Source of the DNA: Aminobacteriaceae bacterium
Lineage (GTDB): Bacteria > Synergistota > Synergistia > Synergistales > Aminobacteriaceae
DNA length: 29,769 nt
Reading direction: 5' to 3'
NCBI GenBank assembly: GCA_041678025.1
Contig: JBAYOX010000001.1
Span: 1-29,769, forward strand
The notes beneath the pieces were generated by a model. That model did no database searches. It saw nothing but the letters and a program-made list of their open reading frames with translations, and was not told the DNA's origin. Shown in pieces: positions 6,816 through 21,983 of this stretch. The first letter of the stretch is position 1, and each line of letters opens with the position of its first letter. The position numbers and the translations under genes are program-made.

Positions 6816-8376
6816 AAGAGAAGTCCTTAACTCTTCCGGCGCGGAGGCTGATGAGGTCTTCGGAGACGAGATTGTCCGCCAGCGCATGGACAAGCTTGAG
6901 CGGCTTCTTTCCGAGGAGGGGTACAACCCCTTCCTTCACGAGAAGTGGGAGTGGAAGCATCATCTTGACTACGTCCGAAAGAGCTTCGAACACCTTGCAG
7001 TGGACGAGATCGACGAGTCGGCGGAGATAGTCACGGCAGGCAGGGTGATGACACTGCGCAGGCACGGCAAAGCGATGTTCGCCAACCTGGCCGACGATAC
7101 CGACACACTTCAGCTCTACCTTCAGCTGAACGCCATGGGGGAGGAGGACTACACATTCGCCAAGAAGTGGGTCGACACGGGCGACTGGGTCGGCGTAGTT
7201 GGACACCCCTTCAGGACGCAGCGCGGAGAGCTCACCCTACACGTCAGAAAGCTCGTCCTGCTGAGCAAGGCCCTCCGTCCTCTTCCCGAGAAGTGGCACG
7301 GACTCAAGGACACCGAGCTTCGCTACCGCCGCCGTTACACGGACCTCATAGCGAACCCGGACGTCCGCGAGACCTTTCGCAAGCGCTCCAAGATAATAGC
7401 CTCCATACGCAAGACGCTCGAGGATCACGGTACGCTGGAGGTTGAGACGCCGATTCTATCGGTCCTGGCGGGTGGGGCCAACGCCCGGCCTTTCAAGACC
7501 TTTCACAACACTCTCGGGATGGAGATGTACCTGCGCATCGCCACCGAGCTCTATCTGAAGCGTCTGATAGTCGGCATGTTCGGCAGGGTCTACGAGATGG
7601 GCAAGAACTTCCGCAACGAGGGGCTCAGCCCGATGCACAACCCGGAGTTCACCGCCATGGAGGTCTACTGGGCCTACGCCGACTACGAGGACATGATGGC
7701 CCTTACCGAGGAGATCATCAGGGACGCCGCCGCATCGGTGCGCGGTCCGGACAGCTCGGGCCCGGTGCGCTACCAGGATGTGGACCTCGATTTCACGAAG
7801 CCGTTCAAGAGGGGGTCTATGCTGGACCTGGTGAGGGAGTACACTGGCATCGACTTCAGGGAGATCAAGGACGACGAGGAGGCGCGCCGGGTCGCCAGAG
7901 AGCGGGGAGTCGAGCTTAGGGGGGGAGAGAGCCGCTTTCTGGTGCTCAACCTGATGTTCGAGACATTCGTGGAGGAGAAGCTGATTCAGCCGACCTTCGT
8001 CACCGGGCATCCGACGGAGATATCCCCGCTGGCAAAGCGCGACCCCTCCGATCCCGACTACACCCACCGCTTCGAGCTGTTCATCTGCGGCAAGGAGGTC
8101 GCGAACGCCTTCAGCGAGCTCAACGACCCAATCGACCAGAGGGCGCGCTTCGAGGACCAGCTCAAGAAAAAGGAGGAGGGGGACGACGAGGCGCACGACT
8201 TCGACGAGGACTTCATAAACGCCATAGAGTCCGGCCTGCCGCCGACGGGTGGTCTGGGCATCGGGGTTGATCGCTTGGTCATGTTCCTGACGGACTCGAG
8301 ATCCATCCGCGACGTGCTGCTCTTCCCGACTATGAAGCCATTGCCCTCGAAGGACAGAGAGGCCTCGGAGGAGTAG
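6799..8376 (+). CDS. lysS: Lysyl-tRNA synthetase, class II (525 aa)
   Basis: OB-fold [34 protein letters not shown], motif 2 FRNEG..HNPEFT, motif 3 [24 protein letters not shown](6782-6787) supports the GTG at 6799. Confidence 0.97.
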
Positions 8377-8385
8377 AGACACCAG

Positions 8386-10413
8386 ATGGAGAGCGATTTG
8401 GCGCGTGTGCCGGAGGAGGCGCGCTCGCGGGCTGAATACCTGAGGGGGGAGATTTTGAGGCACGGAAGGCTTTACTATGTCCTCGACGCCCCCGAGATAC
8501 CGGACGACGAGTACGACGCCCTCTTTGCCGAGCTTGTGGGGCTGGAGGGGCTCTATCCGCCCCTTCGCACGCCCGATTCGCCGACCCGGAGGGTCGGAGG
8601 CAGGGCCGCGGATGGGTTCGTAAAGGTACCTCTGACAGAGCCGATGCTGAGCCTCGACAACGCCCTCGACATGGGTGGCCTGTCAGCATTCCTGGCCAGG
8701 ACGGCCCCATTCGCGGGTGAGGAGGGGTACGTGTGCGAGCTCAAGATCGACGGGCTCGCCGTCTCCCTTCTGTACGAGGATGGCATCTTCGTCCGAGGGA
8801 CGACAAGGGGAGACGGACGCATCGGAGAGGATGTTACTGCCAACCTCCGCACCATCAGGAACCTGCCCATACGCCTCTCGGGGGACTACCCGCACTCTTT
8901 GGAGGTGAGGGGGGAGGTCCTGATCCTGCGCAGCGACTTCGCCGAGCTGAACGATCTGCGCGAGGAGAGAGGGGAGCCGCTGTTCGCCAACCCGCGCAAC
9001 GCCGCAGCCGGCAGCCTCAGGCAGCTCGACCCGGCGGTGGTCGCGGAGAGACGCCTTTCAATCTACACCTACTCGATACTGAGTCCGGAATCCCTCGGGC
9101 TGGACAGCCAGAGGGACGTCCTGGCCCGACTCGTTGATGTTGGGTTTCCGGTACAGCCCGCCTGGGACAGCTGCTCTGCGGACGGGGTCGCAGATTTCGT
9201 CGAGGAGTGGAGGGAGAGGCGCTTCGAGCTCCCCTACGCGACTGACGGAGTGGTCGTCAAGCTGAACTCCCTAGCGTCGTGGGGCGAGCTGGGCAGCACG
9301 TCGCATGCCCCGCGCTGGGCGGTCGCCTTCAAGTACCCCCCCGAGGAGAGGATAACCCGCGTCGAGGAAATAGCAGTATCCGTCGGGCGCACAGGCGCAC
9401 TCACCCCTGTGGCGACCCTCTCCCCTGTGACATTGTCGGGCACGGTGGTGCGCAGGGCGAGCCTTCACAACGAGGACGAGCTCCGCCGCAAGGACGTGCG
9501 CATAGGCGACCTGGTGCGAGTCAGAAAGGCCGGGGAGATAATCCCGGAGATACTTGGGCCGATCGTGGAGGAGAGGACCGGTACGGAGCGCGAGTTCATC
9601 ATGCCGGACAGATGCCCGGCGTGCGGCGGGCCCGTCGCCCGGTTGGAGGGGGAGGTCGCGCTTCGCTGTCAGAACCGCTCGTCATGTCCGGCGCAGCTTA
9701 AAGAGGGAATACTCCACTTCGCCTCGCGCAACGGCATGGACATCCGCGGACTGGGCGAGAGGATAGTCGACCAGCTGGTGGAGAGGGGGATCGTGTTCTC
9801 TCTGGCGGACCTGTACGACCTGAAACACGAAGTCCTGGTTTCTCTCGACAGGATGGGGGAGAAGTCGGCTCAAAATCTCATCGACGGGATAGAAAGATCC
9901 AAGGAACGACCGTTCTCAAGCCTTCTGTCGGCCCTCGGGATTCGCTTCACCGGGGTCCGCGGTGCCGAGATACTCGCCAACGCCTTCCGCGACATGCCGA
10001 CGCTGAGCATGGCGTCAGTGGAGAAGCTCGCCTCGGTCGAAGGTGTCGGTCCTGTGATGGCCGCGGCCATACGTTCGTTCTTCGATCAGCCGGAGAACCG
10101 GAAACTGGTGGAGCGATTAGTCGAGTCAGGAGTAAAGGGGGCCTCGGCCGCGCCTGAAGGTACTCAGGCGGACGAGCATGGTCCCAAGCCGCTTGAGGGA
10201 ATGCGGCTGGTCTTCACCGGAGAGATGAGGTCGATGACGCGACAGGAGGCGGAGGAGCTTGCAAGAAGGCTTGGTGCCACCTGTACCTCTAGTGTATCGG
10301 GCAGGACGACTTACGTGGTTGCCGGAGAGAACGCCGGAGGCAAGCTGGACAGGGCCCGCTCCTTGGGTGTAGCGGTGTTGAACGAGCAGGAGTTCCTGCG
10401 CATGACGGAGTAG
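8386..10413 (+). CDS. ligA: NAD-dependent DNA ligase
   Basis: PMLSLDN, ELKIDG (adenylated Lys), FANPRNAAAGSLRQLD, Zn finger CPAC..C..C, HhH repeats and BRCT VFTG..SSVSGRT. Confidence 0.97.
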   Translation: MESDLARVPEEARSRAEYLRGEILRHGRLYYVLDAPEIPDDEYDALFAELVGLEGLYPPLRTPDSPTRRVGGRAADGFVKVPLTEPMLSLDNALDMGGLSAFLARTAPFAGEEGYVCELKIDGLAVSLLYEDGIFVRGTTRGDGRIGEDVTANLRTIRNLPIRLSGDYPHSLEVRGEVLILRSDFAELNDLREERGEPLFANPRNAAAGSLRQLDPAVVAERRLSIYTYSILSPESLGLDSQRDVLARLVDVGFPVQPAWDSCSADGVADFVEEWRERRFELPYATDGVVVKLNSLASWGELGSTSHAPRWAVAFKYPPEERITRVEEIAVSVGRTGALTPVATLSPVTLSGTVVRRASLHNEDELRRKDVRIGDLVRVRKAGEIIPEILGPIVEERTGTEREFIMPDRCPACGGPVARLEGEVALRCQNRSSCPAQLKEGILHFASRNGMDIRGLGERIVDQLVERGIVFSLADLYDLKHEVLVSLDRMGEKSAQNLIDGIERSKERPFSSLLSALGIRFTGVRGAEILANAFRDMPTLSMASVEKLASVEGVGPVMAAAIRSFFDQPENRKLVERLVESGVKGASAAPEGTQADEHGPKPLEGMRLVFTGEMRSMTRQEAEELARRLGATCTSSVSGRTTYVVAGENAGGKLDRARSLGVAVLNEQEFLRMTE

Positions 10414-10469: not shown

Positions 10470-10802
10470 ATGACGCTCAAAAAGACAGAGATCGGCGCGC
10501 CGGAGCTGGAGCTGGCCGCGCGCGTCGCGGAGACCGCAAGGATCTCAGTGGATGATGAAGAGGTCCGGGACCTCGCTGAGTATATTAACGAGTTCCTTGG
10601 CTATGCGGACGCGCTCGCTGGTGCGCCGGAGGAGGCGGGACTGCCCGATCCTTCGGCCGTAGAGGGGTATGAGGCGCGGGAGGATGTCGCGGAGCGGTCG
10701 GACGTAGGAGACTCAGTGCTTCAGGCCGCGCCGCGAAGAATAGGCTCCTTCTTCGTGGTGCCTAGGATACTGGGTGCCCAGGATGAGGAGGCCTCGATAT
10801 GA
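10470..10802 (+). CDS. gatC: Asp/Glu-tRNA amidotransferase subunit C (110 aa)
   Basis: ARI...L..I..FL pattern, REDV and C-terminal AAP...SFFVVPRIL. RBS GGGAGG(10455-10460). It overlaps the gatA start by ATGA. Confidence 0.85.
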   Translation: MTLKKTEIGAPELELAARVAETARISVDDEEVRDLAEYINEFLGYADALAGAPEEAGLPDPSAVEGYEAREDVAERSDVGDSVLQAAPRRIGSFFVVPRILGAQDEEASI

Positions 10803-12253
10803 ACCTCTCCTCCATGACCGCTGCGAAGATAGCGTCCGATGTGAGAGGCGGCGCACTTTTAGCCTCTGATGCTGCGGCGGCATTTCTCAAGCTCTCGGAT
10901 GAGCTGGAGCCTGCGCTCAACGCCCTTCTTCATATAGATAAGGGCAGGGTTGAAAAGGCCGATGGCGCACGGAGGGGAGATCTCTCCGGCGTCCCGGTGC
11001 TTATGGACGACGGCCTCTGTGTGCGTGGCATGCCGACTACATGCGCATCCAGAATGCTCGAGGGGTGGGTTGCACCGTACGACTCGGCGGCTGTGGAGCT
11101 GCTTGAGGCGTCAGGGGCGGTGATATGCGGCAAGTGCAATATGGACGAGTTCTCCGTCGGCTGTTCGACGGAGTCATCAGCCTTCGGAGCTGCCTCGAAC
11201 CCGCACGACACGGAGAGAACGCCAGGGGGATCGGCAGGGGGGTGCGCCGCCGCAGTTGCGGCCGGGTATGCCCCTCTGGCCTTCGCCTCCGACACGGGAG
11301 GCTCCCTGCTGCAGCCGGCCTCCTTCTGCGGCGTATACGGCCTCAGACCGACCTACGGACTGGTTAGCCGCTGGGGGGCGACCTCGCTCGCTCCGTCCAT
11401 GGACCAGCTTGGAGTGTTCTCCCGCACCGTGGAGGACGCGGCAATCGCCCTGTCCGTCGTGTCCAGGCCCGACCCTAGGGACGAGACGTCCGACAGGAGG
11501 GAGCGCCCCGACTATGTGGCATCCTGCAGGAGCGCCGCCGGAGAGGGCAACCTGGCGGGGAAGAGGATCGCCATCGTAACGGAGGTTAAGAGCGAATCCC
11601 TCTCCTCGGATGTCGCCGAGGCGTTCGAGAGGGTTGTGAGCCTGTGCGGCAAGGAGGGGGCGGAGATTATCGAGCTCTCCCTCCCTGTGTCGTTCACCTA
11701 CTCAATGCCATGTTTCCAGATGCTCCTTGCGGCGGAGGCGGGTTCTAGCCTCGCCAGGTTCGATGGCATCCGCTACGGACTCTCCGCCGAAGCCGACTCC
11801 CTCGCCGCTCTCTACCTCAATAGCAGGGCTGCGGGGTTCGGTATGGAGGCGAAGAGGACGATAGCCGCCGGCACTTACATTCTCGGCTCCGAGCGATACG
11901 AGGACTGCTACCTCAGGGCCTCGTCGGTCAGGAGCATGATCGCCCGCGAGTTCGCCGATGCCTTCATGAAGTGCGACCTGATAGTGCTTCCGACGACGCC
12001 CTCGGTCGCGTTCAGAAAGGGAGAGTACGACGGCGATCCTTTCGGCATGTGCAGGTCGCAGGCCTTCACCATACAGGCGAGCCTCGCCAGCCTGCCCTCC
12101 CTCACTATGAATGGCGCGGACAGGGCCGGTCTGCCCGCAGGAGTCCAGTTCATCGCCCCAAAATGGGGGGAGGCTGGCCTTCTGGCCGCGGCGTCCGTGA
12201 TAGAACGCTCCATAGGCCCGGCACAGATTGCGACACAGGAGAGGGGGCGCTGA
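10799..12253 (+). CDS. gatA: Asp/Glu-tRNA amidotransferase subunit A with a degenerate glutaminase active site
   Basis: Amidase-signature fold (TTCASRML, GKCNMDEF, PGGSAGG, SDTGGS, QPASFCG, ARFDGIRYG) lying between gatC and gatB. The catalytic Lys position reads Asp (MDDG instead of xKDN). Confidence 0.9.
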   Translation: MNLSSMTAAKIASDVRGGALLASDAAAAFLKLSDELEPALNALLHIDKGRVEKADGARRGDLSGVPVLMDDGLCVRGMPTTCASRMLEGWVAPYDSAAVELLEASGAVICGKCNMDEFSVGCSTESSAFGAASNPHDTERTPGGSAGGCAAAVAAGYAPLAFASDTGGSLLQPASFCGVYGLRPTYGLVSRWGATSLAPSMDQLGVFSRTVEDAAIALSVVSRPDPRDETSDRRERPDYVASCRSAAGEGNLAGKRIAIVTEVKSESLSSDVAEAFERVVSLCGKEGAEIIELSLPVSFTYSMPCFQMLLAAEAGSSLARFDGIRYGLSAEADSLAALYLNSRAAGFGMEAKRTIAAGTYILGSERYEDCYLRASSVRSMIAREFADAFMKCDLIVLPTTPSVAFRKGEYDGDPFGMCRSQAFTIQASLASLPSLTMNGADRAGLPAGVQFIAPKWGEAGLLAAASVIERSIGPAQIATQERGR

Positions 12254-12255
12254 TC

Positions 12256-13743
12256 ATGGGTCAAATCTACGAGCCGGTCATCGGCCTTGAGATTCACGTA
12301 CAGCTGGCGACCGAGTCAAAGCTCTTCTGCTCCTGCTCGACGGACTACATCGGAGCGGAGCCGAACAGCAACACCTGCCCGATATGCCTGGGACTGCCGG
12401 GGGCCCTGCCGTCGCTCAACGCCAAGGCTGTGGAGCTCGCCGTAAAGGCCGCCCTTGGTCTCTCATGCACGGTGAGGGACGGGACTATCTTCCACAGGAA
12501 ACACTACTTCTACGCCGACCTCCCCAAGGCTTACCAGATAAGCCAGTATGACCGCCCCGTCGCTGAGGGGGGAGAGCTGTTCATACCCGGTGACGGCGGA
12601 TCGCCGAAGAGGATCGGCATCACGCGTCTTCATCTGGAGGAGGACGCTGGAAAGCTGGTGCACTCGACCGCTGACGGCAGGCTGGAGGGGGCGGAGGAGT
12701 CCTACGCGGACTACAACCGCGGAGGGGTTCCGCTGGCGGAGATTGTCTCCGACCCGGACATCGGTTCGCCTCGCGAGGCCAGAGAGTACGTCTCGGCGCT
12801 TCGCAGGCTGGTCCGCTACCTGGGCGTGTCGGACGGTGATATGGACAGAGGCTCCATGCGCGTCGACGCCAACATCTCCATCACCAGAAAGAGCGCCGAG
12901 ACTGGTGAGGTCATCCAGAGGGGGGAGCGGGCGGAGATTAAGAACATGAACTCCCTGCGCTCCGTCGAGCGGGCCCTCGAGTACGAGATCCGCAGGCAGA
13001 CCGCGGTGCTCGAACGGGGAGAGGTGCTTGTGCGCGAGACCCGTCACTGGAACGACGTCGAGGGGGTAACGACCTCTATGAGAAGCAAGGAGGCGGCGCT
13101 TGACTACCGCTGTATGCCCGACCCGGACCTGGGTCCGGTCAGAGTGACGGAGGAGATGCTTGCGGCTATCGAAAGCTCGTTTCCCGAGCTGCCCTGGGCC
13201 AAGGAGGCCCGCTTCATCAGCGAGTACTCGCTGAACGAGGTCGATTCGGCCATACTTGTAGAGACTCCCGATCTCGCCGAATACTACGAGGAGTGCATCC
13301 GCTCAGGGGCGTCGCCCGTGCGGGCATCCAACTGGGTCCGCACCGAGGTGCTACGCGTCCTGAACGAGCGAGGAGGCTCGATAGACTCTCTTCCCGTAGG
13401 TCCGGGCGCGTTGGGTGAGCTGATTCGCATGGTGGACGAAGGAAAACTCTCCACCACCGCGGCGAAGGAGGTCTACGGGGAGATGACCGACGGTGGCCTG
13501 CCGCTTGAGGAGGCGCTGAAAAAGTGCGGTGCCGGTGAGGAGCTGTCGCAGGAGTCGCTGGCAGAGGTAGTCCGCAAGGTCATGGACGCAAACCCCGACG
13601 TGCTTACAGAGATACTGGACGACAGGGACGCGAAGGGTAAGAAGAGGAAGTTCCTGTGCGGCCTCGTCATGAGAGAGACGCGCGGTCAGGCGAATTCGGC
13701 TGCCGTCGAGGGACTGATCGACTCGCTCCTACAGGGGCGCTGA
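12256..13743 (+). CDS. gatB: Asp/Glu-tRNA amidotransferase subunit B (495 aa)
   Basis: YEPVIGLEIHVQL, CPICLGLPGALP, RKHYFY.DLPKAYQISQ, HLEEDAGK, DYNRGGVPLAEIVS, GSMRVDANIS, EIKNMNS, and a C-terminal YqeY-like domain. The real start is the ATG at 12256, not 11971. Confidence 0.96.
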   Translation: MGQIYEPVIGLEIHVQLATESKLFCSCSTDYIGAEPNSNTCPICLGLPGALPSLNAKAVELAVKAALGLSCTVRDGTIFHRKHYFYADLPKAYQISQYDRPVAEGGELFIPGDGGSPKRIGITRLHLEEDAGKLVHSTADGRLEGAEESYADYNRGGVPLAEIVSDPDIGSPREAREYVSALRRLVRYLGVSDGDMDRGSMRVDANISITRKSAETGEVIQRGERAEIKNMNSLRSVERALEYEIRRQTAVLERGEVLVRETRHWNDVEGVTTSMRSKEAALDYRCMPDPDLGPVRVTEEMLAAIESSFPELPWAKEARFISEYSLNEVDSAILVETPDLAEYYEECIRSGASPVRASNWVRTEVLRVLNERGGSIDSLPVGPGALGELIRMVDEGKLSTTAAKEVYGEMTDGGLPLEEALKKCGAGEELSQESLAEVVRKVMDANPDVLTEILDDRDAKGKKRKFLCGLVMRETRGQANSAAVEGLIDSLLQGR

Positions 13744-13862: not shown

Positions 13863-15944
13863 ATGGGAACCCGTCAGCCTGAGAACACACGAAGTTTTGC
13901 CTTGGCGGCACACGGAGGAGCTGGGAAGACCAGCCTCGTGGAGGCCATGCTTTTCAACTGTGGAGGCACGAACAGACTGGGAAAGACCGAGGATGGCAAC
14001 ACGGTCAGCGACTTCTCCCAGGAGGAGCAGAAGAGACAGATCTCCATCAACACATCACTGCTCACGATGGAGAGAGGAGGGAAGACCCTCTTCGCGCTCG
14101 ACACCCCTGGATTTGCTGACTTTGTGGGTGAGATGCGCTCTGCGCTCAGCGTGGCTGACTCTCTTATTATAGTTGTCAACGGTGCCAGCGGCATCGAAGT
14201 CCAGACCGACAAGGCCTGGGAGACGGGAGAGGAGTTCGCCCTGCCCACGTCATTCTACATCTCCAAGCTGGATCGCGAGAACTCGGACTTCGAAAAGGTC
14301 CTGGCGGATATCAAGGCGGACTACAGCGACAAGGCCGTGCCGGTGCTCCTTCCGATAGGCAAAGAGTCCTCCTTCACGGGCGTCGTCGACGTCCTGAGAC
14401 AGAAGGCCTACGTCTACGAGCCCAACGGCTCGGGCAAGTTCGAGGAGGGAGATGTTCCTGCCGACATGGCGGACTCTGTCTCATCCGCGAGAGAAGCCCT
14501 GATAGAGAATGTGGTCGAGGCCGACGACGACCTGATGATGCGCTACCTTGACGGGGAGACGGTCTCCGACGAGGAGCTCGTCCCCGTTATGAGGAAGGCG
14601 ATAGGACAGCGTTTGCTACTGCCCGTCTTCCCCGGTGCATCCACCCTGAATATTGGCGTACAACAGATGCTCGACTTCATAGTCGAGTACTTCCCGTCGC
14701 CGCTTGGCTCACGCGCGCGCCTGGCCAAGGTGGACGGAGAGGATGCGGAGATTGCTCCTGACGCGTCGGCACCATTTACCGCCAACTGCTTCAAGGTCAT
14801 GGTCGACCCGTTCGTTGGCAAGCTCTCCTTCATCAGAGTGAACTCGGGTTCCCTAACAACGGACAACAATATCTACAACGTCAACAAGCAGGAGGACGAG
14901 CGCATAAGCTCCTTCAAGTTCATGACCGGAAAAGAGGGAAAGGACGTCAAGGAGATAATCGTCGGAGATATACTGTCGCTGCCGAAGCTTCAGAGCGTCC
15001 AGGTCGGGGATACCCTTGGAGTCAAGGGCTCAAAGACCATCTTCCCGCCGGTCGAGTTCCCCAAGCCGGTCTACAGCGTCGCCATCACTGCAAAGAGCCG
15101 TGCCGACGAGGACAAGCTTGGCAACGCCATCAACAAGACGCTTGAGGAGGACCTGAGCCTCAGCTACGAGAAGAACCCCGAGACCAACGACAGCGTGCTC
15201 TCCGGGATGGGAGACATGCACATCGACATAGTCCTGGCCAAGATGAAGGAGCGCTACGGGGTCGACCTGGACACCAAGACACCGCAGGTCCCGTACAGAG
15301 AGACCATTCGCAAGACAGCGGAGGCTCAAGGCAAGCATAAGAAGCAGACCGGTGGACACGGCCAGTACGGAGATGTCCATATCAGGTACACGCCGATGGA
15401 GAGGGGTTCGGGATTCGAGTTCGAGGACAGCATCGTCGGAGGCGCCATCCCCAAGGGGTTCATACCGGCGGTCGAGAAGGGGCTGCGCGAGAACATGATC
15501 AAGGGGCCCCTGGCGGGCTTTCCCGTCGTAGACTTCAAGGCCACTCTATTCTTCGGTTCCTACCATGATGTAGACAGCTCGGAGATGTCGTTCAAGCTCG
15601 CAGCGAGGCTTTCCTTCAGAAAGGGAATCATGGAGGCCGGTCCCATCCTGCTTGAGCCGATAATGAACGTCGAGGTCACAGTCCCGGAGGACTACCTGGG
15701 CGACGTCATGGGCGACTTCAACAGCAGACGCGGTCGCATCCTCGGAATAGACAGCAAGGGGCACCAGCAGATAGTAAAGGCGCAGGCCCCTCTGGCGGAG
15801 ATGTTCCGCTACGCCATAATACTACGATCGATGACCTCGGGCAGGGGCACCTTCACCATGGAGTACGACCACTACGAAGAGGTCCCGGCGGAGATCTCCA
15901 AGAAGGTCATAGCCGCCCACAAGGAGGAGGAAGAGGAGGAGTAG
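13863..15944 (+). CDS. fusA2: Elongation factor G paralog (EF-G2/FusA2 type)
   Basis: Full EF-G length (693 aa) with domain IV KKQTGGHGQYG, HDVDSSE and domain V LLEPIM. The G motifs diverge (AHGGAGKT, RQISI, DTPGF, SKLD), and the gene is outside the str operon. Confidence 0.9.
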   Translation: MGTRQPENTRSFALAAHGGAGKTSLVEAMLFNCGGTNRLGKTEDGNTVSDFSQEEQKRQISINTSLLTMERGGKTLFALDTPGFADFVGEMRSALSVADSLIIVVNGASGIEVQTDKAWETGEEFALPTSFYISKLDRENSDFEKVLADIKADYSDKAVPVLLPIGKESSFTGVVDVLRQKAYVYEPNGSGKFEEGDVPADMADSVSSAREALIENVVEADDDLMMRYLDGETVSDEELVPVMRKAIGQRLLLPVFPGASTLNIGVQQMLDFIVEYFPSPLGSRARLAKVDGEDAEIAPDASAPFTANCFKVMVDPFVGKLSFIRVNSGSLTTDNNIYNVNKQEDERISSFKFMTGKEGKDVKEIIVGDILSLPKLQSVQVGDTLGVKGSKTIFPPVEFPKPVYSVAITAKSRADEDKLGNAINKTLEEDLSLSYEKNPETNDSVLSGMGDMHIDIVLAKMKERYGVDLDTKTPQVPYRETIRKTAEAQGKHKKQTGGHGQYGDVHIRYTPMERGSGFEFEDSIVGGAIPKGFIPAVEKGLRENMIKGPLAGFPVVDFKATLFFGSYHDVDSSEMSFKLAARLSFRKGIMEAGPILLEPIMNVEVTVPEDYLGDVMGDFNSRRGRILGIDSKGHQQIVKAQAPLAEMFRYAIILRSMTSGRGTFTMEYDHYEEVPAEISKKVIAAHKEEEEEE

Positions 15945-16028: not shown

Positions 16029-17210
16029 TTAGAAGTTGTCCTGTGGCGCCCACATCTCAAGGAAGTTCAGCTTCTGATCCTTCCAGACCATCATCGCGGC
16101 CGGCTTGTTCAGCGGGTTGTGCGTCTCCTTGTCGACCGTGAGGGAGAAGTGAACCAGGCGTAGGTCCTTTGTCTCCTCCAGCGCATCCCTGATAGCAACC
16201 GGGTCGTCGGTGCCCGCTCTTCTGATAGCGTCCGCTACCCAGGTGATGAGGTCGTAGGCGTAAGCCACGTTGCTGGGCTCCGTCACCGGTCTGCCGTACT
16301 CCTTCTCGAAGCGGGAGAAGAGCAGAATCATCTGCGGGTTGAGCAGGTCCATGTTATAGACCCAGTAGCTGCCCTCCATGGCGTCCCCTGCTATCTCTTG
16401 CATGCTCGGGCTGAAGCCGTCTCCTCCGATGAAGGCGGGGAACCAGTCAAGTTCCGCAGCCTGCTTCATGATAAGGCCCATCTCCTTGTAAAGGAGAGGA
16501 AGTGCGACGCCCTCGGCCCCGGAGGCCTTCATCTCGGTCAGCAGCGCCCTGAAGTCGACATCTCCGCTGCGGAATCCCCAGATTCCCTTGAGCTCCCCTC
16601 CGAGTTCCTCGTAGCGTGAAACGAAGAACTCCTTGAGACCCTCGGAGTAGTCGCTCCCCACGTCGGTGATGACCGCCGCGGACTTGATGTTCAACTTGTT
16701 GAAAAAATAGTCGGCCATGACCTTGCCCTGGTAGGGGTCTGTGTAGCTGAGGCGGAATGCGAAGGGGCGAACCTTGTTCGTCTCCGGATCCACGGTGACC
16801 GTCGGGTTGGTAGCAGAGGTCCCTATCTGCGCGACCTTGCCGTTCTCGACCACGGATGCCGTGGCCAGGTTCAGACCGCTGTAGTTCGTCCCGCCGATGA
16901 CGCATACCTTGTCCTCGTAGACGAGCCTGCGGGCCGCATTTATAGCGTCCTCCTGGCGCCCCCGGACGTCGTAGCAGATGAGTTCCAGCGGACGGCCGAG
17001 CACACCGCCTGCCTCGTTGAACTCCTTCACTGCCAGCATCGCGCCCTCTTTTTCATGCTGCCCCCACGTAGAACCGTCTCCGGTGAGTATCGCTAGATAG
17101 CCGATCTTTATCGGCTCGCCCTCCGGAACGGCGGCGAACGATGAAGCGGACATCAACACCAACAGCGCAGCGGCGACCATGAATACCTTACTGTTCAAAA
17201 CTCTCCTCAT
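16029..17210 (-). CDS. Branched-chain/amide-type ABC substrate-binding protein (LivJ-like), orphan
   Basis: Signal peptide, IKIGYLAILTG, GGVLGRPLELICYD, FRLSYTDPYQG, DYSEGL, AYDLITWVADAIRRAG. RBS GAGGAGG. No LivHMGF genes adjacent. Confidence 0.88.
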   Translation of the reverse strand: MRRVLNSKVFMVAAALLVLMSASSFAAVPEGEPIKIGYLAILTGDGSTWGQHEKEGAMLAVKEFNEAGGVLGRPLELICYDVRGRQEDAINAARRLVYEDKVCVIGGTNYSGLNLATASVVENGKVAQIGTSATNPTVTVDPETNKVRPFAFRLSYTDPYQGKVMADYFFNKLNIKSAAVITDVGSDYSEGLKEFFVSRYEELGGELKGIWGFRSGDVDFRALLTEMKASGAEGVALPLLYKEMGLIMKQAAELDWFPAFIGGDGFSPSMQEIAGDAMEGSYWVYNMDLLNPQMILLFSRFEKEYGRPVTEPSNVAYAYDLITWVADAIRRAGTDDPVAIRDALEETKDLRLVHFSLTVDKETHNPLNKPAAMMVWKDQKLNFLEMWAPQDNF

Positions 17211-17255
17211 GTACTTCTCTACCTCCTCGTCTGGTGTTTGAAAAATGTTTGGTCA

Positions 17256-17284
17256 ATTCTAACGGGAGGTTATGTCAATGTCAA
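17256..17284 (-). promoter_or_regulatory. Near-consensus sigma70 promoter for the LivJ-like gene
   Basis: Minus strand TTGACA(17284-17279)-17 bp-TAGAAT(17261-17256). Confidence 0.8.
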
Positions 17285-17295
17285 ATCAGAAGTTG

Positions 17296-18474
17296 TCACG
17301 GCTGTTCGAATGTTCCTCGCGCTAATATTTCACCATTTTCCATAAGGAGACGCCCTTTTGCTAACACAGATTTGGGTTTGAGATGGCCGTCAAGGATCAG
17401 GATATCTGCGTCCTTTCCGGACTGTATTCTCCCTTTACTCGTCAGCTTCAAATGATCAGCCGGGTTGGACGTAATGAACGAAATGACAGTCTGAGCCGGA
17501 AGATCACCTTGCCGCAACATTTCCATCGCTGCTCCAAGAACTGAATCAAGAGGGCTGACTTTCAAGCCCGTCATTTCTCCTTGTTTGTTGAAAGACGGCA
17601 TAGATCCGTTTCCGTCGGAGCTAAAAGTGATATTCTTAGTCTCAACGCCGCCTTTAATAAGACGTGATACTGCGTCGCCTGTTGATAATTCTAAAAGCGA
17701 ATTTTCTCCAGAAGACGCGGTTATATCGAGGTAGCCGCCTGCAACGCCAAAAGCGACGGACTCCTCCATGAGGGAATTGCACCTTGAAATGTGAGTGGGG
17801 GCAAACTGTGTGATGGGAATATCCGTACCTTTAATGGCGTCCAGGAGAGGGGTCAATCCAGAGGTTTCACTTCCCATATGGACGCACAAGCAGCCCGCCT
17901 TGCCCGTCAGGATCCCTCCTGCCCTTACATCCGAGACTGCCCGCCGTATCTCTTCTTTAGAAGGATGCGAACTCCTGTGGTCCGATACGGCGAGCTTCAG
18001 ACCTAAGACCTTGTCTATTAGGCAAAGATCTCTCTTTACATCTCCCGTAAAAGTGGCGGAGGGCAGACTGTAGCTTCCAGTAAGGATCCAGGTGGAGATG
18101 CCCTCCTCTTCCAGCCCTCTTGCTTTCATTAATAGTTCCTCGAGCGCGCGGCAGGTTCCGTCAGTCCCCAGCATACCTACGGCTGAGGTCACCCCCGCCC
18201 TCACAAATGAAGACAGTTGTAAAGGAGGTGTTCGGTTGGCTGGCCCTCCTTCGCCTCCCGCTCCGTTGAAGTGGACGTGTCTGTCTATAACGCCTGGCAT
18301 GGTTAGATCCCCGCAGGCATCCAAAATGCGTAGATCCCCGGAGAGTGTCGAAAGAACGCTACGGTCGGTCTTTCCTGCGGCAGATACAGAAATGATTTTT
18401 CCAGCGATTATCAGAATATCGCTGAGACCTTTCGGTTCAGGGGAGTACAGATCAGCATTTTCGATTAAAAGCAT
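17296..18474 (-). CDS. iadA: Isoaspartyl (beta-aspartyl) dipeptidase (392 aa)
   Basis: PGVIDRHVHFNGAGGEGGP..RTP, GMLGTDG, TGSY, GLKLAVSDHR (carbamylated Lys), VHMG, PTHI, SSDGNGSMP.F: all IadA metal ligands are present. RBS AAGGAGAG supports the ATG at 18474. Confidence 0.93.
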   Translation of the reverse strand: MLLIENADLYSPEPKGLSDILIIAGKIISVSAAGKTDRSVLSTLSGDLRILDACGDLTMPGVIDRHVHFNGAGGEGGPANRTPPLQLSSFVRAGVTSAVGMLGTDGTCRALEELLMKARGLEEEGISTWILTGSYSLPSATFTGDVKRDLCLIDKVLGLKLAVSDHRSSHPSKEEIRRAVSDVRAGGILTGKAGCLCVHMGSETSGLTPLLDAIKGTDIPITQFAPTHISRCNSLMEESVAFGVAGGYLDITASSGENSLLELSTGDAVSRLIKGGVETKNITFSSDGNGSMPSFNKQGEMTGLKVSPLDSVLGAAMEMLRQGDLPAQTVISFITSNPADHLKLTSKGRIQSGKDADILILDGHLKPKSVLAKGRLLMENGEILARGTFEQP

Positions 18475-18552
18475 TAGAAAACTCTCCTTTTCTGAAGTCG
18501 TAGATGTGGCAAATAGATCGTTCTTTCGCGGCTGTTCTGCAATAGAAGGGAG

Positions 18553-18582
18553 AAAAAAGGTCCTCCGTATAGCCGGAGGACC
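18553..18582 (-). terminator. Intrinsic terminator/attenuator between the NhaC-family gene and iadA
   Basis: Perfect 9-bp stem GGTCCTCCG/CGGAGGACC with a 6-nt loop, followed on the minus strand by T6, starting 7 nt after the transporter stop. Confidence 0.75.
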
Positions 18583-18589
18583 AACCATA

Positions 18590-19996
18590 TTACACTGTTT
18601 TCTTCAGGTCAGAAGGCCATATCGCTATGCCGGTGAATCCGTAGAACCAGGCGGTTAGGAAGCCAAAGTAGCAAAGGATGGCCCATGGGGCATACTCGAA
18701 GACAGAAACATCAAGAACAGTAGACATATAGATGCCTGCCGCCGACCAGGGTATGAGTGGAACAACTACTGTACCCGAGTCCTCAAGCGTCCTTGAGAGC
18801 ACTCTCCTGGAGATATTCATTTCATCGGCTAGATCCTTGTACATGGTCCCTGGTACTATCTCGCTCAGATATGAGTTCCCCGTGCCGAGGCCGGTGAGTA
18901 TTCCAGTGACGGATGATGAGAAGACGAACCGTCCCTTGCTACTCCCAATGAACCGGTCCTTAAGGGAGGAGCAGATTGTGCGGAAGGTTCCTGTATACTC
19001 CAATTCACCAGCGAAGATATAGGCAAAAAATACCACCACGACTGAGCTGGTCATAAAAGACAAGCCCCCTCTGCTCAAAAGACTGTCTATTGCCGTAACG
19101 CCTGTGGTTATCTTAGGGCCCGACGCCATGGCTTTGGCTATTGAGGAGATATCGTAGCCTTGCATCATTGCTAGAGGTATGGCGAGAGCGATTGCGATCC
19201 ATAGTACCGGGAGGGTGGGGTAGCGCATGTAGGCCAGCACTAGTACAACGAGGGGAGGAATAAGGACAATGGGTGTAACTTTGAAGGTATTGGAAATGCC
19301 TTCAATTATTACGTTCACAGACGAAAAGTCGATCTCTCCGGAAGAGCTCGACCCAACGTACCAGTAGAGCCCGAGGCTCAGTATGAACGCGGGAACCGTA
19401 GTCCAGAGCATAGATCTAATATGGTCCATTATATCCACTTCCGCAACCGCCGCAGCCAGGACAGTTGTGTCTGAAATCGGGCTTATCTTATCGCCGAAAT
19501 ATGCCCCCCCAACAATTGCTCCGGCCGCTGCAGCGAGAGGTACTCCCAGTCCTTGGGCTATGCCCATTAAGGCAACTCCGAAGGTGGCTGCTGTCCCCCA
19601 CGAAGTTCCCGTGAGAGTGGACGACAGCGAGCAGATAACAAACGCAGCCATGAGGAATGTCTTCGGAGTCAGTAGTTGAAGGCCTGCATAAATCAGATAC
19701 GGGATGGTTCCTGAGACCATCCATGCCGCGATAAGAGGCCCTACGGTCAAGAGTATCATAATTGCACCGGTCGCACGTCCTATCATAGGAACGACACCTT
19801 TTTCGAAGAGTTCATTCCATGAATAATTGTAATGGTACACGTAAACGGTCGTTGTGAACATGCCAATGAACATAAGCAACAGGGCAACGTCGAAACCCAT
19901 TACAAGTCGACCCAGTACAATGATAAACAAAATGGCACCAAAAACCAGTATGGCTCCTCCAAGAGAAATATTCTTGTGCGTCTTTTCTGTAGGCAC
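18590..19996 (-). CDS. NhaC-family (Na+/H+ antiporter-like) transporter; substrate probably an amino acid or small peptide
   Basis: GTSWGTAATFG, GAYFGDKISPISDTTVLA, LSRTLED.GT...PLIPW, and about 12 TM segments. GTG start with RBS AGGAGGAG. Confidence 0.88.
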   Translation of the reverse strand: MPTEKTHKNISLGGAILVFGAILFIIVLGRLVMGFDVALLLMFIGMFTTTVYVYHYNYSWNELFEKGVVPMIGRATGAIMILLTVGPLIAAWMVSGTIPYLIYAGLQLLTPKTFLMAAFVICSLSSTLTGTSWGTAATFGVALMGIAQGLGVPLAAAAGAIVGGAYFGDKISPISDTTVLAAAVAEVDIMDHIRSMLWTTVPAFILSLGLYWYVGSSSSGEIDFSSVNVIIEGISNTFKVTPIVLIPPLVVLVLAYMRYPTLPVLWIAIALAIPLAMMQGYDISSIAKAMASGPKITTGVTAIDSLLSRGGLSFMTSSVVVVFFAYIFAGELEYTGTFRTICSSLKDRFIGSSKGRFVFSSSVTGILTGLGTGNSYLSEIVPGTMYKDLADEMNISRRVLSRTLEDSGTVVVPLIPWSAAGIYMSTVLDVSVFEYAPWAILCYFGFLTAWFYGFTGIAIWPSDLKKTV

Positions 19997-20101
19997 TTTA
20001 CACTCCTCCTTGTTTTGTTTTTCAATTATGAAGCAAACGGAAACAACTTCTCATTCTTTCCGTAAACGCCCTTTAATAATGCCGCCGCTCTCCCTCCCCA
20101 T

Positions 20102-20155
20102 ATTATTGGATTCATTATTGGATACGTCATTGAATATAATAGCTCCATGAATTCA
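20102..20155. promoter_or_regulatory. Operator-like direct repeats overlapping the NhaC promoter
   Basis: TGGATTCA(20107), TGGATACG(20119) and TGAATATA(20131) at a 12-bp period, plus the palindrome TGAATTCA(20148). A related TGTATCCA/GGTATACT pair lies at 20296/20308. Confidence 0.55.
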
Positions 20156-20165
20156 GCGTTGTCAA
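20136..20165 (-). promoter_or_regulatory. sigma70 promoter for the NhaC-iadA side
   Basis: Minus strand TTGACA(20165-20160)-18 bp-TATTAT(20141-20136). Confidence 0.65.
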
Positions 20166-20267
20166 GTGTTAGGTCTAAACAAAATACACCTAAATAAGCA
20201 CCTATAAAGAAGAATGAAGCCCCTCAGAGCTTTGAACCAACGAATATATAAATTTATGAAAGTGCTA

Positions 20268-20296
20268 TTGACTTTGTTTTTTTCGCGCTATAGAAT
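20268..20296 (+). promoter_or_regulatory. sigma70 promoter for the peptide ABC operon
   Basis: TTGACT(20268-20273)-17 bp-TAGAAT(20291-20296). Confidence 0.8.
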
Positions 20297-20363
20297 GTAT
20301 CCATAATGGTATACTTTATTCCGCGCGACGAAAATTTATCAATAGAAAAGGGAGGAATGTATT

Positions 20364-21983
20364 GTGAGGAAAGGACTCGCCGCAGTACTAGGAATCGCTC
20401 TGCTGCTCTCATTGTTGGGAGTTGCCGCGTTAGCAGCGTCATGTGAGCTCGTGATCGGAATGCCGGGGGATGTTCACTCGATGGATCCCTATACGCTTAA
20501 CGAAACAATTAACAACGCGCTCAACAACCATATTTTCGACACGCTGATCGAGACGGATAACAGTCTCCAACCCAGGCCGGGTCTCGCCGAGAGTTGGGAG
20601 ATTTCGGAGGATTCCCGTACTTGGATTTTTCACCTCAGAAAGGGAGTGACCTTCCATAATGGCAACCCTTTCACCGCTGACGACGTCATTTATTCCTTCG
20701 ACCGCTCCAAGGATAGGGAGGTCGGTGCCGCCTTCGTGTACGTGCTATCAACAGTTGAGGATTACGAGAAGATCGACGACTATACGCTGAAGGTGACCTG
20801 CAAGTCGCCCAACGCCCTGTTATTGGCGCACTTCAAGGATTTGCTGATTCTGAACAAGGCGCACTGCGAAGGCCGGGGGAACGACTGGATTGCGCTGAAT
20901 CCCAACGGTACAGGCCGCTACAAGCTGGTCGAGCACGTGCGCGGCGACAGGCTCGTGTTCGAACGCAATCCTTCTTTCTGGGGGGAGCAGCCGAAAGCCG
21001 AAAAGGTCACGTTCAAGCCTATCACCAACGAGGGAACCAGGACTGCCAATATGCTCTCGGGCGCGGTCGACCTCGTTGTCGATGTCCCCGTGCGCGACGT
21101 AGAGATGCTGGAGAACAACAAAAATGTCGCCGTCATCTCCCAGCCAGGGCTGCGCGCCATCTATCTCAACTTGGCAGGTTGGAGCGACATGCCGTCGAAG
21201 GATGCGAAGATGCAGCTGAAGTCCCCGGACGGAAGCAATCCATTCAAGGATATCCGCGTCCGCGAGGCGATGTACCGCGCCATCAACATCGGCGAGATCG
21301 TCGATAAGATTATGAACGGCTTCGCGAAGCCGATGGGTACCTACTCCCCCGAAGGTTATAACGGCTTCAATCCCGATGTGAAACGTTTGGACTATGACCC
21401 CGCGCTCGCTGAGAAGCTACTTGACGAGGCTGGATACAAGCGCCAAAGTGACGGTTATCGCTTCGAAGTCACCCTTGATGCTCCCAACGATCGTTACATC
21501 AACGACGGCCCCGTAGCCACGGCAATCGCGGGCTACTTCGAGAAGGTCGGCATAAAGGTAAATCCGAACCTAATGTCCCGTTCGGTCTTCTTCTCCTACA
21601 TTTCCACGTCCAACAGCGCCGGGGACAACACGCACCTTTGCATGACCGGCTGGTCTGATTCCGGAGGTGAGAGCGCCCTGATCGGCCTCGACATGCTCTA
21701 CAGCATCACCCAAAACGGCGAGGTTAAACCGGGGTACGGCGGAGTCAATAGGGGTTACTACTGCAATCCTGAGGTTGATCGGTTGATCGATGAAGCCATT
21801 GCCACTGGAGATCCAGCGCAGCGTGGCGAAATTATGAAGAAAGCCTGGCAGCTGGCCGCCGACGATGTCTCATACATCCCCCTGTACTTCGAGGTGGATC
21901 TGTACGCTCACGGCAAAAAGATTACCTACACGCCCCGCAAGGACAAGTACGTTTTTGCCTGGGATGTATCCTTTAACGACTAA
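20364..21983 (+). CDS. Peptide/dipeptide ABC transporter substrate-binding protein (family 5, DppA/OppA-like)
   Basis: Signal peptide, IFDTLIE, PGLAESWEISED..TWIFHLRKGVTFHNG.PFTADDVIYSF, NGTGRYKL, DIRVREAM..AIN. GTG start with RBS GGGAGG. Confidence 0.92.
   Translation: MRKGLAAVLGIALLLSLLGVAALAASCELVIGMPGDVHSMDPYTLNETINNALNNHIFDTLIETDNSLQPRPGLAESWEISEDSRTWIFHLRKGVTFHNGNPFTADDVIYSFDRSKDREVGAAFVYVLSTVEDYEKIDDYTLKVTCKSPNALLLAHFKDLLILNKAHCEGRGNDWIALNPNGTGRYKLVEHVRGDRLVFERNPSFWGEQPKAEKVTFKPITNEGTRTANMLSGAVDLVVDVPVRDVEMLENNKNVAVISQPGLRAIYLNLAGWSDMPSKDAKMQLKSPDGSNPFKDIRVREAMYRAINIGEIVDKIMNGFAKPMGTYSPEGYNGFNPDVKRLDYDPALAEKLLDEAGYKRQSDGYRFEVTLDAPNDRYINDGPVATAIAGYFEKVGIKVNPNLMSRSVFFSYISTSNSAGDNTHLCMTGWSDSGGESALIGLDMLYSITQNGEVKPGYGGVNRGYYCNPEVDRLIDEAIATGDPAQRGEIMKKAWQLAADDVSYIPLYFEVDLYAHGKKITYTPRKDKYVFAWDVSFND

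Follow-up and report, generated by a model that had tools for sequence, protein, structure and literature searches.

The stretch of DNA analyzed here, referred to as the window, comprises 29,769 nucleotides from an Aminobacteriaceae bacterium of the phylum Synergistota (assembly GCA_041678025.1, contig JBAYOX010000001.1; genome G000 in our set) and carries the genes lysS, ligA, gatC, gatA, gatB, and fusA in this order on the plus strand. The tRNA-dependent amidotransferase GatCAB is the textbook example of a glutaminase joined through an ammonia tunnel to a tRNA-dependent kinase/transamidase. At this locus, as the first-pass annotation had proposed, a GatA predicted to be glutaminase-dead lies within an intact gatCAB operon: the glutaminase site is destroyed, the open reading frame (ORF) and GatB are intact, and the gene is under purifying selection. 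The features are as follows, with the flanking genes given last.

10470..10802, plus strand: gatC, 110 amino acids from the ATG at 10470, with a match to TIGR00135
10799..12253, plus strand: gatA orthologue with a destroyed glutaminase site (pseudo-GatA), 484 amino acids
11006..11008, plus strand: GAC, Asp70, at the position of the catalytic Lys (S. aureus K79)
11231..11236, plus strand: Ser145 (the cis-Ser, kept) and Ala146 (canonically Ser), in GGSAGGC
11303..11311, plus strand: Ser169 (the nucleophile, kept), followed by Leu170-Leu171 in place of the Ile-Arg of GSIRQP
11858..11860, plus strand: Thr354, in place of the Arg that binds the Gln carboxylate (S. aureus R358, yeast R334)
12059..12061, plus strand: Gln421, in place of the Gln-binding Asp (S. 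aureus D425, yeast D418)
12256..13743, plus strand: gatB, 495 amino acids, catalytically intact by sequence, with matches to NF004012 and TIGR00133
6769-8376, plus strand: lysS
8386-10413, plus strand: ligA
13863-15944, plus strand: fusA

The ATG of gatC at 10470 is preceded by a GGGAGG Shine-Dalgarno sequence; the mechanical ORF start is at 10413. GatC matches TIGR00135 with 38.3 bits (E = 1.3e-9), under the cut-off of 47.1, and the orthologous gene on an ENA contig (P0002, L062) carries Pfam GatC. The stop of gatC and the start of gatA overlap as ATGA, and gatA runs from 10799 to 12253 with neither a stop nor a frameshift, so that the intact frame and the overlap with gatC read at first pass are both present. 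Orthology of the gene to gatA is indicated by its position between gatC and gatB, the ligA-gatCAB-fusA synteny, and a GatA tree congruent with the GatB tree. Its product scores 424.6 bits against TIGR00132, which is under the curated cut-off of 481.1 and about 200 bits over any other amidase family. An AlphaFold2 (AF2) model (predicted local distance difference test score, pLDDT, of 93) was matched by Foldseek to GatA of A. aeolicus (3h0l_A) with an E value of 1.5e-52, a template modeling (TM) score of 0.93, and a root mean square deviation (rmsd) of 1.4 Å; the amidase-signature fold is present.

Inspection of the active site gave a different picture from that expected of the family. The codons, read directly, are TCG for Ser145 (at 11231) and TCC for Ser169 (at 11303), and the canonical Tyr pair has become C305/F306. 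HMMER alignments to the solved chains of A. aeolicus (3h0l_A, E = 7.8e-105) and P. aeruginosa (4wj3_A) place VLMDDG opposite the canonical (I/V)xxKDN, GGSAGGC opposite GGSSGGS, GSLLQP opposite GSIRQP, KRTI opposite KRRI, and MCRSQ opposite MYLSD. The same equivalences were obtained against 26 canonical GatA sequences of Synergistota, which yielded the substitutions K70D, S146A, R171L, Y307Q, R354T, Y418C, and D421Q. Every codon behind the initial claim (catalytic Lys to Asp70, together with C305, F306, T354, and Q421) is thus as claimed. The Ser-cisSer-Lys triad is incomplete, with Asp70 for the Lys and with Ser145 and Ser169 retained. The alignment of the four species that share this state (see below) contains no new conserved Lys as a replacement for K70, and the possibility raised beforehand that another Lys occupies the triad position found no candidate. 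In these four species the Gln-binding Arg is T/M/V and the Gln-binding Asp is Q/L; the roles of the corresponding residues R358 and D425 of S. aureus are described (PMC4027206). The sequence predicts that this GatA is unable to bind or hydrolyze glutamine. Because the protein is GatA by descent and fold and the defining catalytic features of the family are gone, it is not a glutaminase by these features, and its best name is pseudo-GatA within GatCAB.

The genome bin that holds the window has 1.88 Mb in 286 contigs, is 84.5% complete, and contains one gatB. A contig from an independent landfill run (X3) covers 10470-11758 and one from a wastewater run (X5) covers 10780-11152, each with 0 differences to the window, and a contig from an RNA-library run (X18), which spans 10793-11131, also covers the codon at 11006-11008. 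The latter is weak evidence of transcription. None of the three has a variant at 11006-11008. A sequencing error at this codon, which the first-pass annotation had named as a way for its claim to fail, is excluded by the independent landfill and wastewater assemblies that carry the same codon and by the same substitutions in the genomes of three other species. The search for a second, canonical gatA found none in any of the four genomes with a dead GatA (G000, G002, G005, and G006). An amidase on contig C186 of G000 was considered as a second GatA and rejected, being a generic amidase with PRK08137 and PRK06828 as best families. This gene (L002, 1444-2322) has an intact Lys, is cut by the contig end, and lies downstream of Sir2-type deacetylase-like and malic-enzyme-like genes.

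GatA orthologues were sampled from 40 relatives; related genomes are not independent observations. The change of Lys to Asp with its companion changes occurs in exactly four genomes of the same genus (G000, G005, G006, and G002; 63 to 69% identity to the window protein), and the ENA contig mentioned above has them as well. The canonical residues are found in the four other gatA-bearing members of the genus and in every other member of the family and order sampled. A clade-wide loss in Synergistota, a prospect raised at first pass, did not emerge from this mapping: the loss is limited to four species that form a subclade of one genus, and independent losses occur elsewhere. Within the subclade the altered state is itself conserved. 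Of the 125 GatA columns that are near-invariant in the 26 canonical sequences, 24 differ in three or more of the four dead sequences, and the replacement is nearly always identical among them; all four species also share 31 fixed, clade-specific residues. In one further genome of the genus (G003, 82% complete), neither a gatA orthologue nor aspS was found and only a generic amidase is present; the missing gatA and aspS are probably due to incompleteness.

For the closest dead pair, L012/L013, the ratio of nonsynonymous to synonymous substitutions (dN/dS) of gatA is 0.07 to 0.11 at a dS of 0.29 to 0.40, compared to 0.08 to 0.10 for canonical pairs of the genus; gatB has values of about 0.1 to 0.2. 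Distant pairs with a saturated dS of >1 were left out. The dead gatA is under purifying selection that is indistinguishable from that of canonical pairs. Maximum-likelihood trees place the dead clade as sister to its canonical congeners, with support of 100/94 for GatA and 93/96 for GatB. The stem of the dead clade has 0.70 changes per site versus 0.034 for its sister in the GatA tree, compared to 0.25 versus 0.10 in the GatB tree. A GatA-specific burst of change was followed by renewed constraint, and therefore, the gene is functional, though not as a glutaminase.

These data also bear on the simplest alternative, a decaying, functionless operon or an assembly artefact. The formal dispensability of the operon beside asnS and glnS, the 84.5% completeness of the bin, and the very long GatA stem branch would fit such a view. 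However, four species and independent assemblies all have uninterrupted ORFs, and the dN/dS of 0.07 to 0.11 was obtained at unsaturated dS. An apparent frameshift in gatB of L012 was rejected as such and is a scaffold gap of 10 N. Taken together, we regard decay or artefact as very improbable. The first-pass annotation had named relaxed selection together with asnS and glnS as a reason to abandon its claim; the two synthetase genes are indeed present, and the relaxation is not.

In contrast to GatA, which departs from the family at its active site, GatB meets both of its family models over cut-off (NF004012, 578 bits; TIGR00133, 508 bits versus a cut-off of 314.8). It keeps 113 of 121 near-invariant columns, with five conservative changes. 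The motifs LEIH, HLEED, and EIVS are present, in agreement with the initial reading that the metal and kinase motifs are retained. A complex prediction with GatB(1-400), GatC, and GatA scored 0.93, and a control in which GatB was replaced scored 0.87. GatA is known to need GatC for folding and for binding to GatB (PMC2330236).

What would such a complex do in this organism? Asparaginyl-tRNA synthetase (AsnRS) and glutaminyl-tRNA synthetase (GlnRS) are encoded in nine of nine genomes of the genus, and a single bacterial-type aspartyl-tRNA synthetase (AspRS) is encoded in eight of nine. AsnA was found in none of the nine genomes, and AsnB over cut-off was restricted to the two largest, neither of which belongs to the dead clade. 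The genome check for asnS, glnS, and asnA/asnB that had been proposed thus returned the first two genes and not the others in the dead clade. GatCAB recognizes U1-A72 on its substrate tRNA versus G1-C72 on tRNA(Asp). The tRNA(Asn) found here has U1-A72 and the tRNA(Asp) G1-C72, and this pattern is compatible with recognition by GatCAB, which is a permissive observation only. In Thermus, Deinococcus, and Bdellovibrio, the combination of AsnRS, GlnRS, and GatCAB without AsnA or AsnB is the gene set by which asparagine is made on its tRNA (PMC2330236, PMC4206432). Given AsnRS, GlnRS, one AspRS, and no AsnA or AsnB found, GatCAB would serve tRNA-dependent Asn synthesis here as well.

Glutamine synthetase (PF00120) was not found in the four genomes with a dead GatA (84.5, 94, 97, and 98% complete) and is present in the five other members of the genus. 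A tblastn search with both synthetase types of a congener found nothing in G000, and a literature search on glutamine synthetase in Synergistota found nothing relevant. A comparable pattern was observed in the neighboring genus g3, in which three small genomes (L073, L075, and L076, corresponding to G070, G073, and G066) keep the triad and have the changes Y307 to H, Y418 to R, D421 to N, and S164 to T. These three are without glutamine synthetase; seven of seven canonical g3 genomes have it. The g3 variants may have a changed amide-donor specificity. In three canonical relatives (G008:C32, G004:C58, and G010:C37), the contig that carries gatCAB also has, at a distance of about 40 kb, a gene for a 705-amino-acid, type III-like glutamine synthetase.

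Triad loss is not restricted to the genus of the window. A line sister to the g3 variants (P0026 = L060/L061 and P0121 = L078/L079; 78% identical), whose source genome is outside the representative genome set, has the Lys changed to Ala, the cis-Ser to Ala, the nucleophilic Ser to Asp, and D421 to K, in a locus with ligA-gatCAB synteny, a full and intact gatB, and a gatA dN/dS of 0.15 to 0.19. In genus g19 (Synergistaceae by the names of its relatives), three of three species (L087, L089, and L090, corresponding to G026, G174, and G175) have the Lys changed to Ser, the cis-Ser to Pro, and the next Ser to Phe, with the Gln-binding residues kept; these genomes are 1.2 to 1.6 Mb in size and 97 to 100% complete, and their gatA has a dN/dS of 0.09 to 0.12 at a dS of 0.24 to 0.42. 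In G017 (L088, genus g10), a 23-residue deletion removes the cis-Ser loop of GatA and a 10-residue deletion lies around Y418, accompanied by D421N, in an intact ORF. Triad loss arose independently several times in Synergistota. AsnRS was not found in the three g19 genomes or in G017 (90% complete), and judged from gene content, these lineages have no visible route to Asn-tRNA(Asn) other than GatCAB. Since AsnRS was not found there, the triad-broken GatCAB must still amidate. These lineages are the strongest argument that dead-GatA complexes use a nitrogen source other than glutamine hydrolyzed by GatA.

Several further cases stand beside these. Two single database proteins that are Synergistaceae-like GatA homologues have the Lys changed to Thr (P0233) or to Asp with the cis-Ser changed to Gly (P0280). 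In G212 (L097, 1028-2520; genus g49), where AsnRS was likewise not found, gatA is frameshifted into two ORFs just after GGSSGGS, with Y307 to N and D421 to T downstream; the split gene is either a pseudogene or an assembly error. Low-scoring gatA matches of the phylum survey were considered as degenerate genes and mostly rejected as contig-end fragments.

The AsnRS-less lineages speak to a further possibility, that the complex is kept for a role other than amidation: the kinase or binding functions of GatB might clear or sequester mischarged Asp-tRNA(Asn), or the complex might have a transamidosome-like structural role. With AsnRS and GlnRS present, amidation is not needed for decoding in the genus of the window, which is in line with this idea. 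On the other hand, almost no near-invariant residue of GatB has been lost, the metal and ATP motifs are preserved, and amidation must persist in g19 and G017 beside a triad-less GatA, so that we consider a non-amidating role quite unlikely.

If amidation persists, ammonia could be delivered by a separate glutaminase, asparaginase, or deaminase, with GatA as a docking platform only; supply by another enzyme was also considered at first pass. Amino acid fermenters have many deaminases, and the generic amidase on contig C186 has an intact triad. No such gene, however, is linked to the operon in any lineage, and the stand-alone amidase, which G005 and G006 lack, cannot for that reason be a consistent partner. 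To our minds, this alternative has little going for it.

The main rival is a rebuilt pocket with a new function as a donor site, in which Ser145 and Ser169, together with Asp70 or one of the new Cys residues (C122, C149, C164, and C370), would release ammonia from an amide other than Gln or Asn into the tunnel. Both Ser residues, Asp71, and the TGGS oxyanion loop are retained; 31 clade-specific residues are fixed in four species under purifying selection; the g3 variant, with its triad and its altered Gln-binding residues (Y to H, Y to R, and D to N), implies that a donor site can shift; and relatives of GatA have been recruited to other amides, as in AtzE and biuret hydrolase (6c62 is among the fold matches). 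To our knowledge, loss of the Lys has been severely disabling in every amidase-signature enzyme studied, which counts against such a site. Furthermore, two independent lineages lost more of the triad (K to A, S to A, and S to D in one; K to S and S to P in the other), which argues that catalysis itself became dispensable, and the operon offers neither a candidate substrate nor a linked gene. A new donor site is, in our estimate, unlikely, yet it deserves more weight than the alternatives above.

In sum, we propose with moderate confidence that GatA is a pseudo-glutaminase that acts as a scaffold or tunnel subunit of an ammonia-fed amidotransferase. In our model, the Asp-tRNA(Asn) made by the single bacterial-type AspRS would be phosphorylated by GatB and then amidated to Asn-tRNA(Asn) with free cytoplasmic ammonia/ammonium and not with Gln-derived ammonia. 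GatA and GatC would be kept as the structural partners of GatB in folding and assembly, and GatA possibly still forms the mouth of the ammonia tunnel. The dead GatA would thus be retained because GatB needs GatA and GatC as structural partners. We infer ammonia as the donor, the assembly of the three subunits, and the charging of tRNA(Asn) by AspRS. NH4Cl is an in vitro donor for tRNA-dependent amidotransferases (PMC4027206). Listed runs with the sequence are all from landfill, wastewater, sludge, bioreactor, and biogas metagenomes. These are ammonia-rich, anaerobic habitats, in agreement with the ammonia-rich setting envisaged in the first-pass annotation; together with the loss of glutamine synthetase, such habitats make a switch to ammonia plausible.

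Several observations weigh against an ammonia-fed complex. Ammonia use by GatCAB is known only in vitro and at millimolar NH4+. None of the four species has lost S145, S169, the oxyanion loop, or Asp71, and the conserved new residues also fit a new activity. With AsnRS and GlnRS present, GatCAB is not strictly needed for decoding here. The genes reported as absent were sought in metagenome bins, of which G000 is 84.5% complete, although four genomes agree. Moreover, glutamine synthetase, AsnRS, and GlnRS were not found in G018 (genus g11, L080, 98% complete), and yet its GatA is canonical, and genus g19 lost its triad but keeps a glutamine synthetase; the link to glutamine synthetase is, therefore, neither necessary nor sufficient, and its loss as a sufficient cause of the dead GatA was rejected on the evidence of G018. 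GuaA and PyrG of the dead-clade genomes keep their glutaminase Cys, so that glutamine is still a nitrogen donor in the cell; with these catalytic residues intact, a genome-wide decay of glutaminases was also rejected.

With respect to known systems, the operon, the three subunits, the GatA fold, and the GatB motifs are those of the canonical GatCAB of S. aureus (2DF4/2F2A), A. aeolicus (3H0L), and P. aeruginosa (4WJ3). What differs is the Asp for the Lys, the replaced Gln-binding Arg, Asp, and Tyr residues, the 24 changed columns, and the score under the TIGR00132 cut-off. Thermus thermophilus, Deinococcus radiodurans, and Bdellovibrio bacteriovorus (PMC2330236, PMC4206432) likewise have AsnRS, GlnRS, and GatCAB without AsnA or AsnB, and Bdellovibrio shares the single bacterial-type AspRS. 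Their GatCABs have an active glutaminase and use Gln, whereas here the glutaminase site appears dead and glutamine synthetase was not found in the four genomes. A functional precedent is yeast GatFAB, in which N-terminal deletions of GatF lower glutaminase activity and raise NH4Cl-dependent transamidation at 20 mM NH4Cl (PMC4027206). Free ammonium can thus supply the GatB step in place of a bypassed or impaired GatA site; the yeast case is a laboratory condition or an engineered mutant, whereas here it would be a natural, selected state. Ammonia-dependent counterparts of glutamine amidotransferases are well known, as in AsnA versus AsnB and in the NH3-dependent NadE. They follow the same logic, in that the synthetase is kept and the glutaminase dropped where ammonia is plentiful, but they are without a glutaminase domain altogether, whereas here a dead subunit is retained under selection. 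The vestigial AtzE-AtzG complex (PDB 6C62) and Tse8 (PMC12283126) are GatA-related amidase-signature proteins, some of which pair with a GatC-like peptide; these are paralogues that lie outside gatCAB and combine an intact triad with new substrates, in contrast to the orthologue with a broken triad inside gatCAB described here. A published description of a naturally glutaminase-dead GatA was not found in the literature searched. New are the Synergistota cases, their recurrence, the association with loss of glutamine synthetase, and the AsnRS-less g19 lineage.

If the model of an ammonia-fed GatCAB is correct, environmental ammonia can sustain the GatB half in vivo, the structural role of GatA is separable from catalysis, and the nitrogen economy of amino acid fermenters at high ammonia is linked to their Asn-tRNA synthesis. 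It is also imaginable, though improbable, that the emptied Gln pocket has been rebuilt (Asp70, C122, C149, C164, and C370) into a selective intake port for ammonia/ammonium, a sensor that gates the tunnel, or a site for another nitrogen donor; the recurrent triad loss in Synergistota would then mark a natural class of ammonia-dependent tRNA amidotransferases, in which Asn-tRNA synthesis would be uncoupled from glutamine. The repeated losses provide a comparative set of four species here, three of g19, and two of the line sister to the g3 variants, along with their canonical sisters. Genome annotation pipelines give all such proteins the name GatA, and metabolic models go on to presuppose a need for glutamine that the cells may not have.

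Regarding the remainder of the window, the region 7021-8334 was considered as an archaeal-type, nondiscriminating AspRS and rejected, since it encodes lysyl-tRNA synthetase (LysRS). On the 3′ side of fusA (16029-21983) lie genes for a branched-chain amino acid binding protein, a beta-aspartyl peptidase (iadA), an NhaC/ArcD-type antiporter, and a peptide ABC binding protein, which are consistent with a fermenter of peptides and amino acids.

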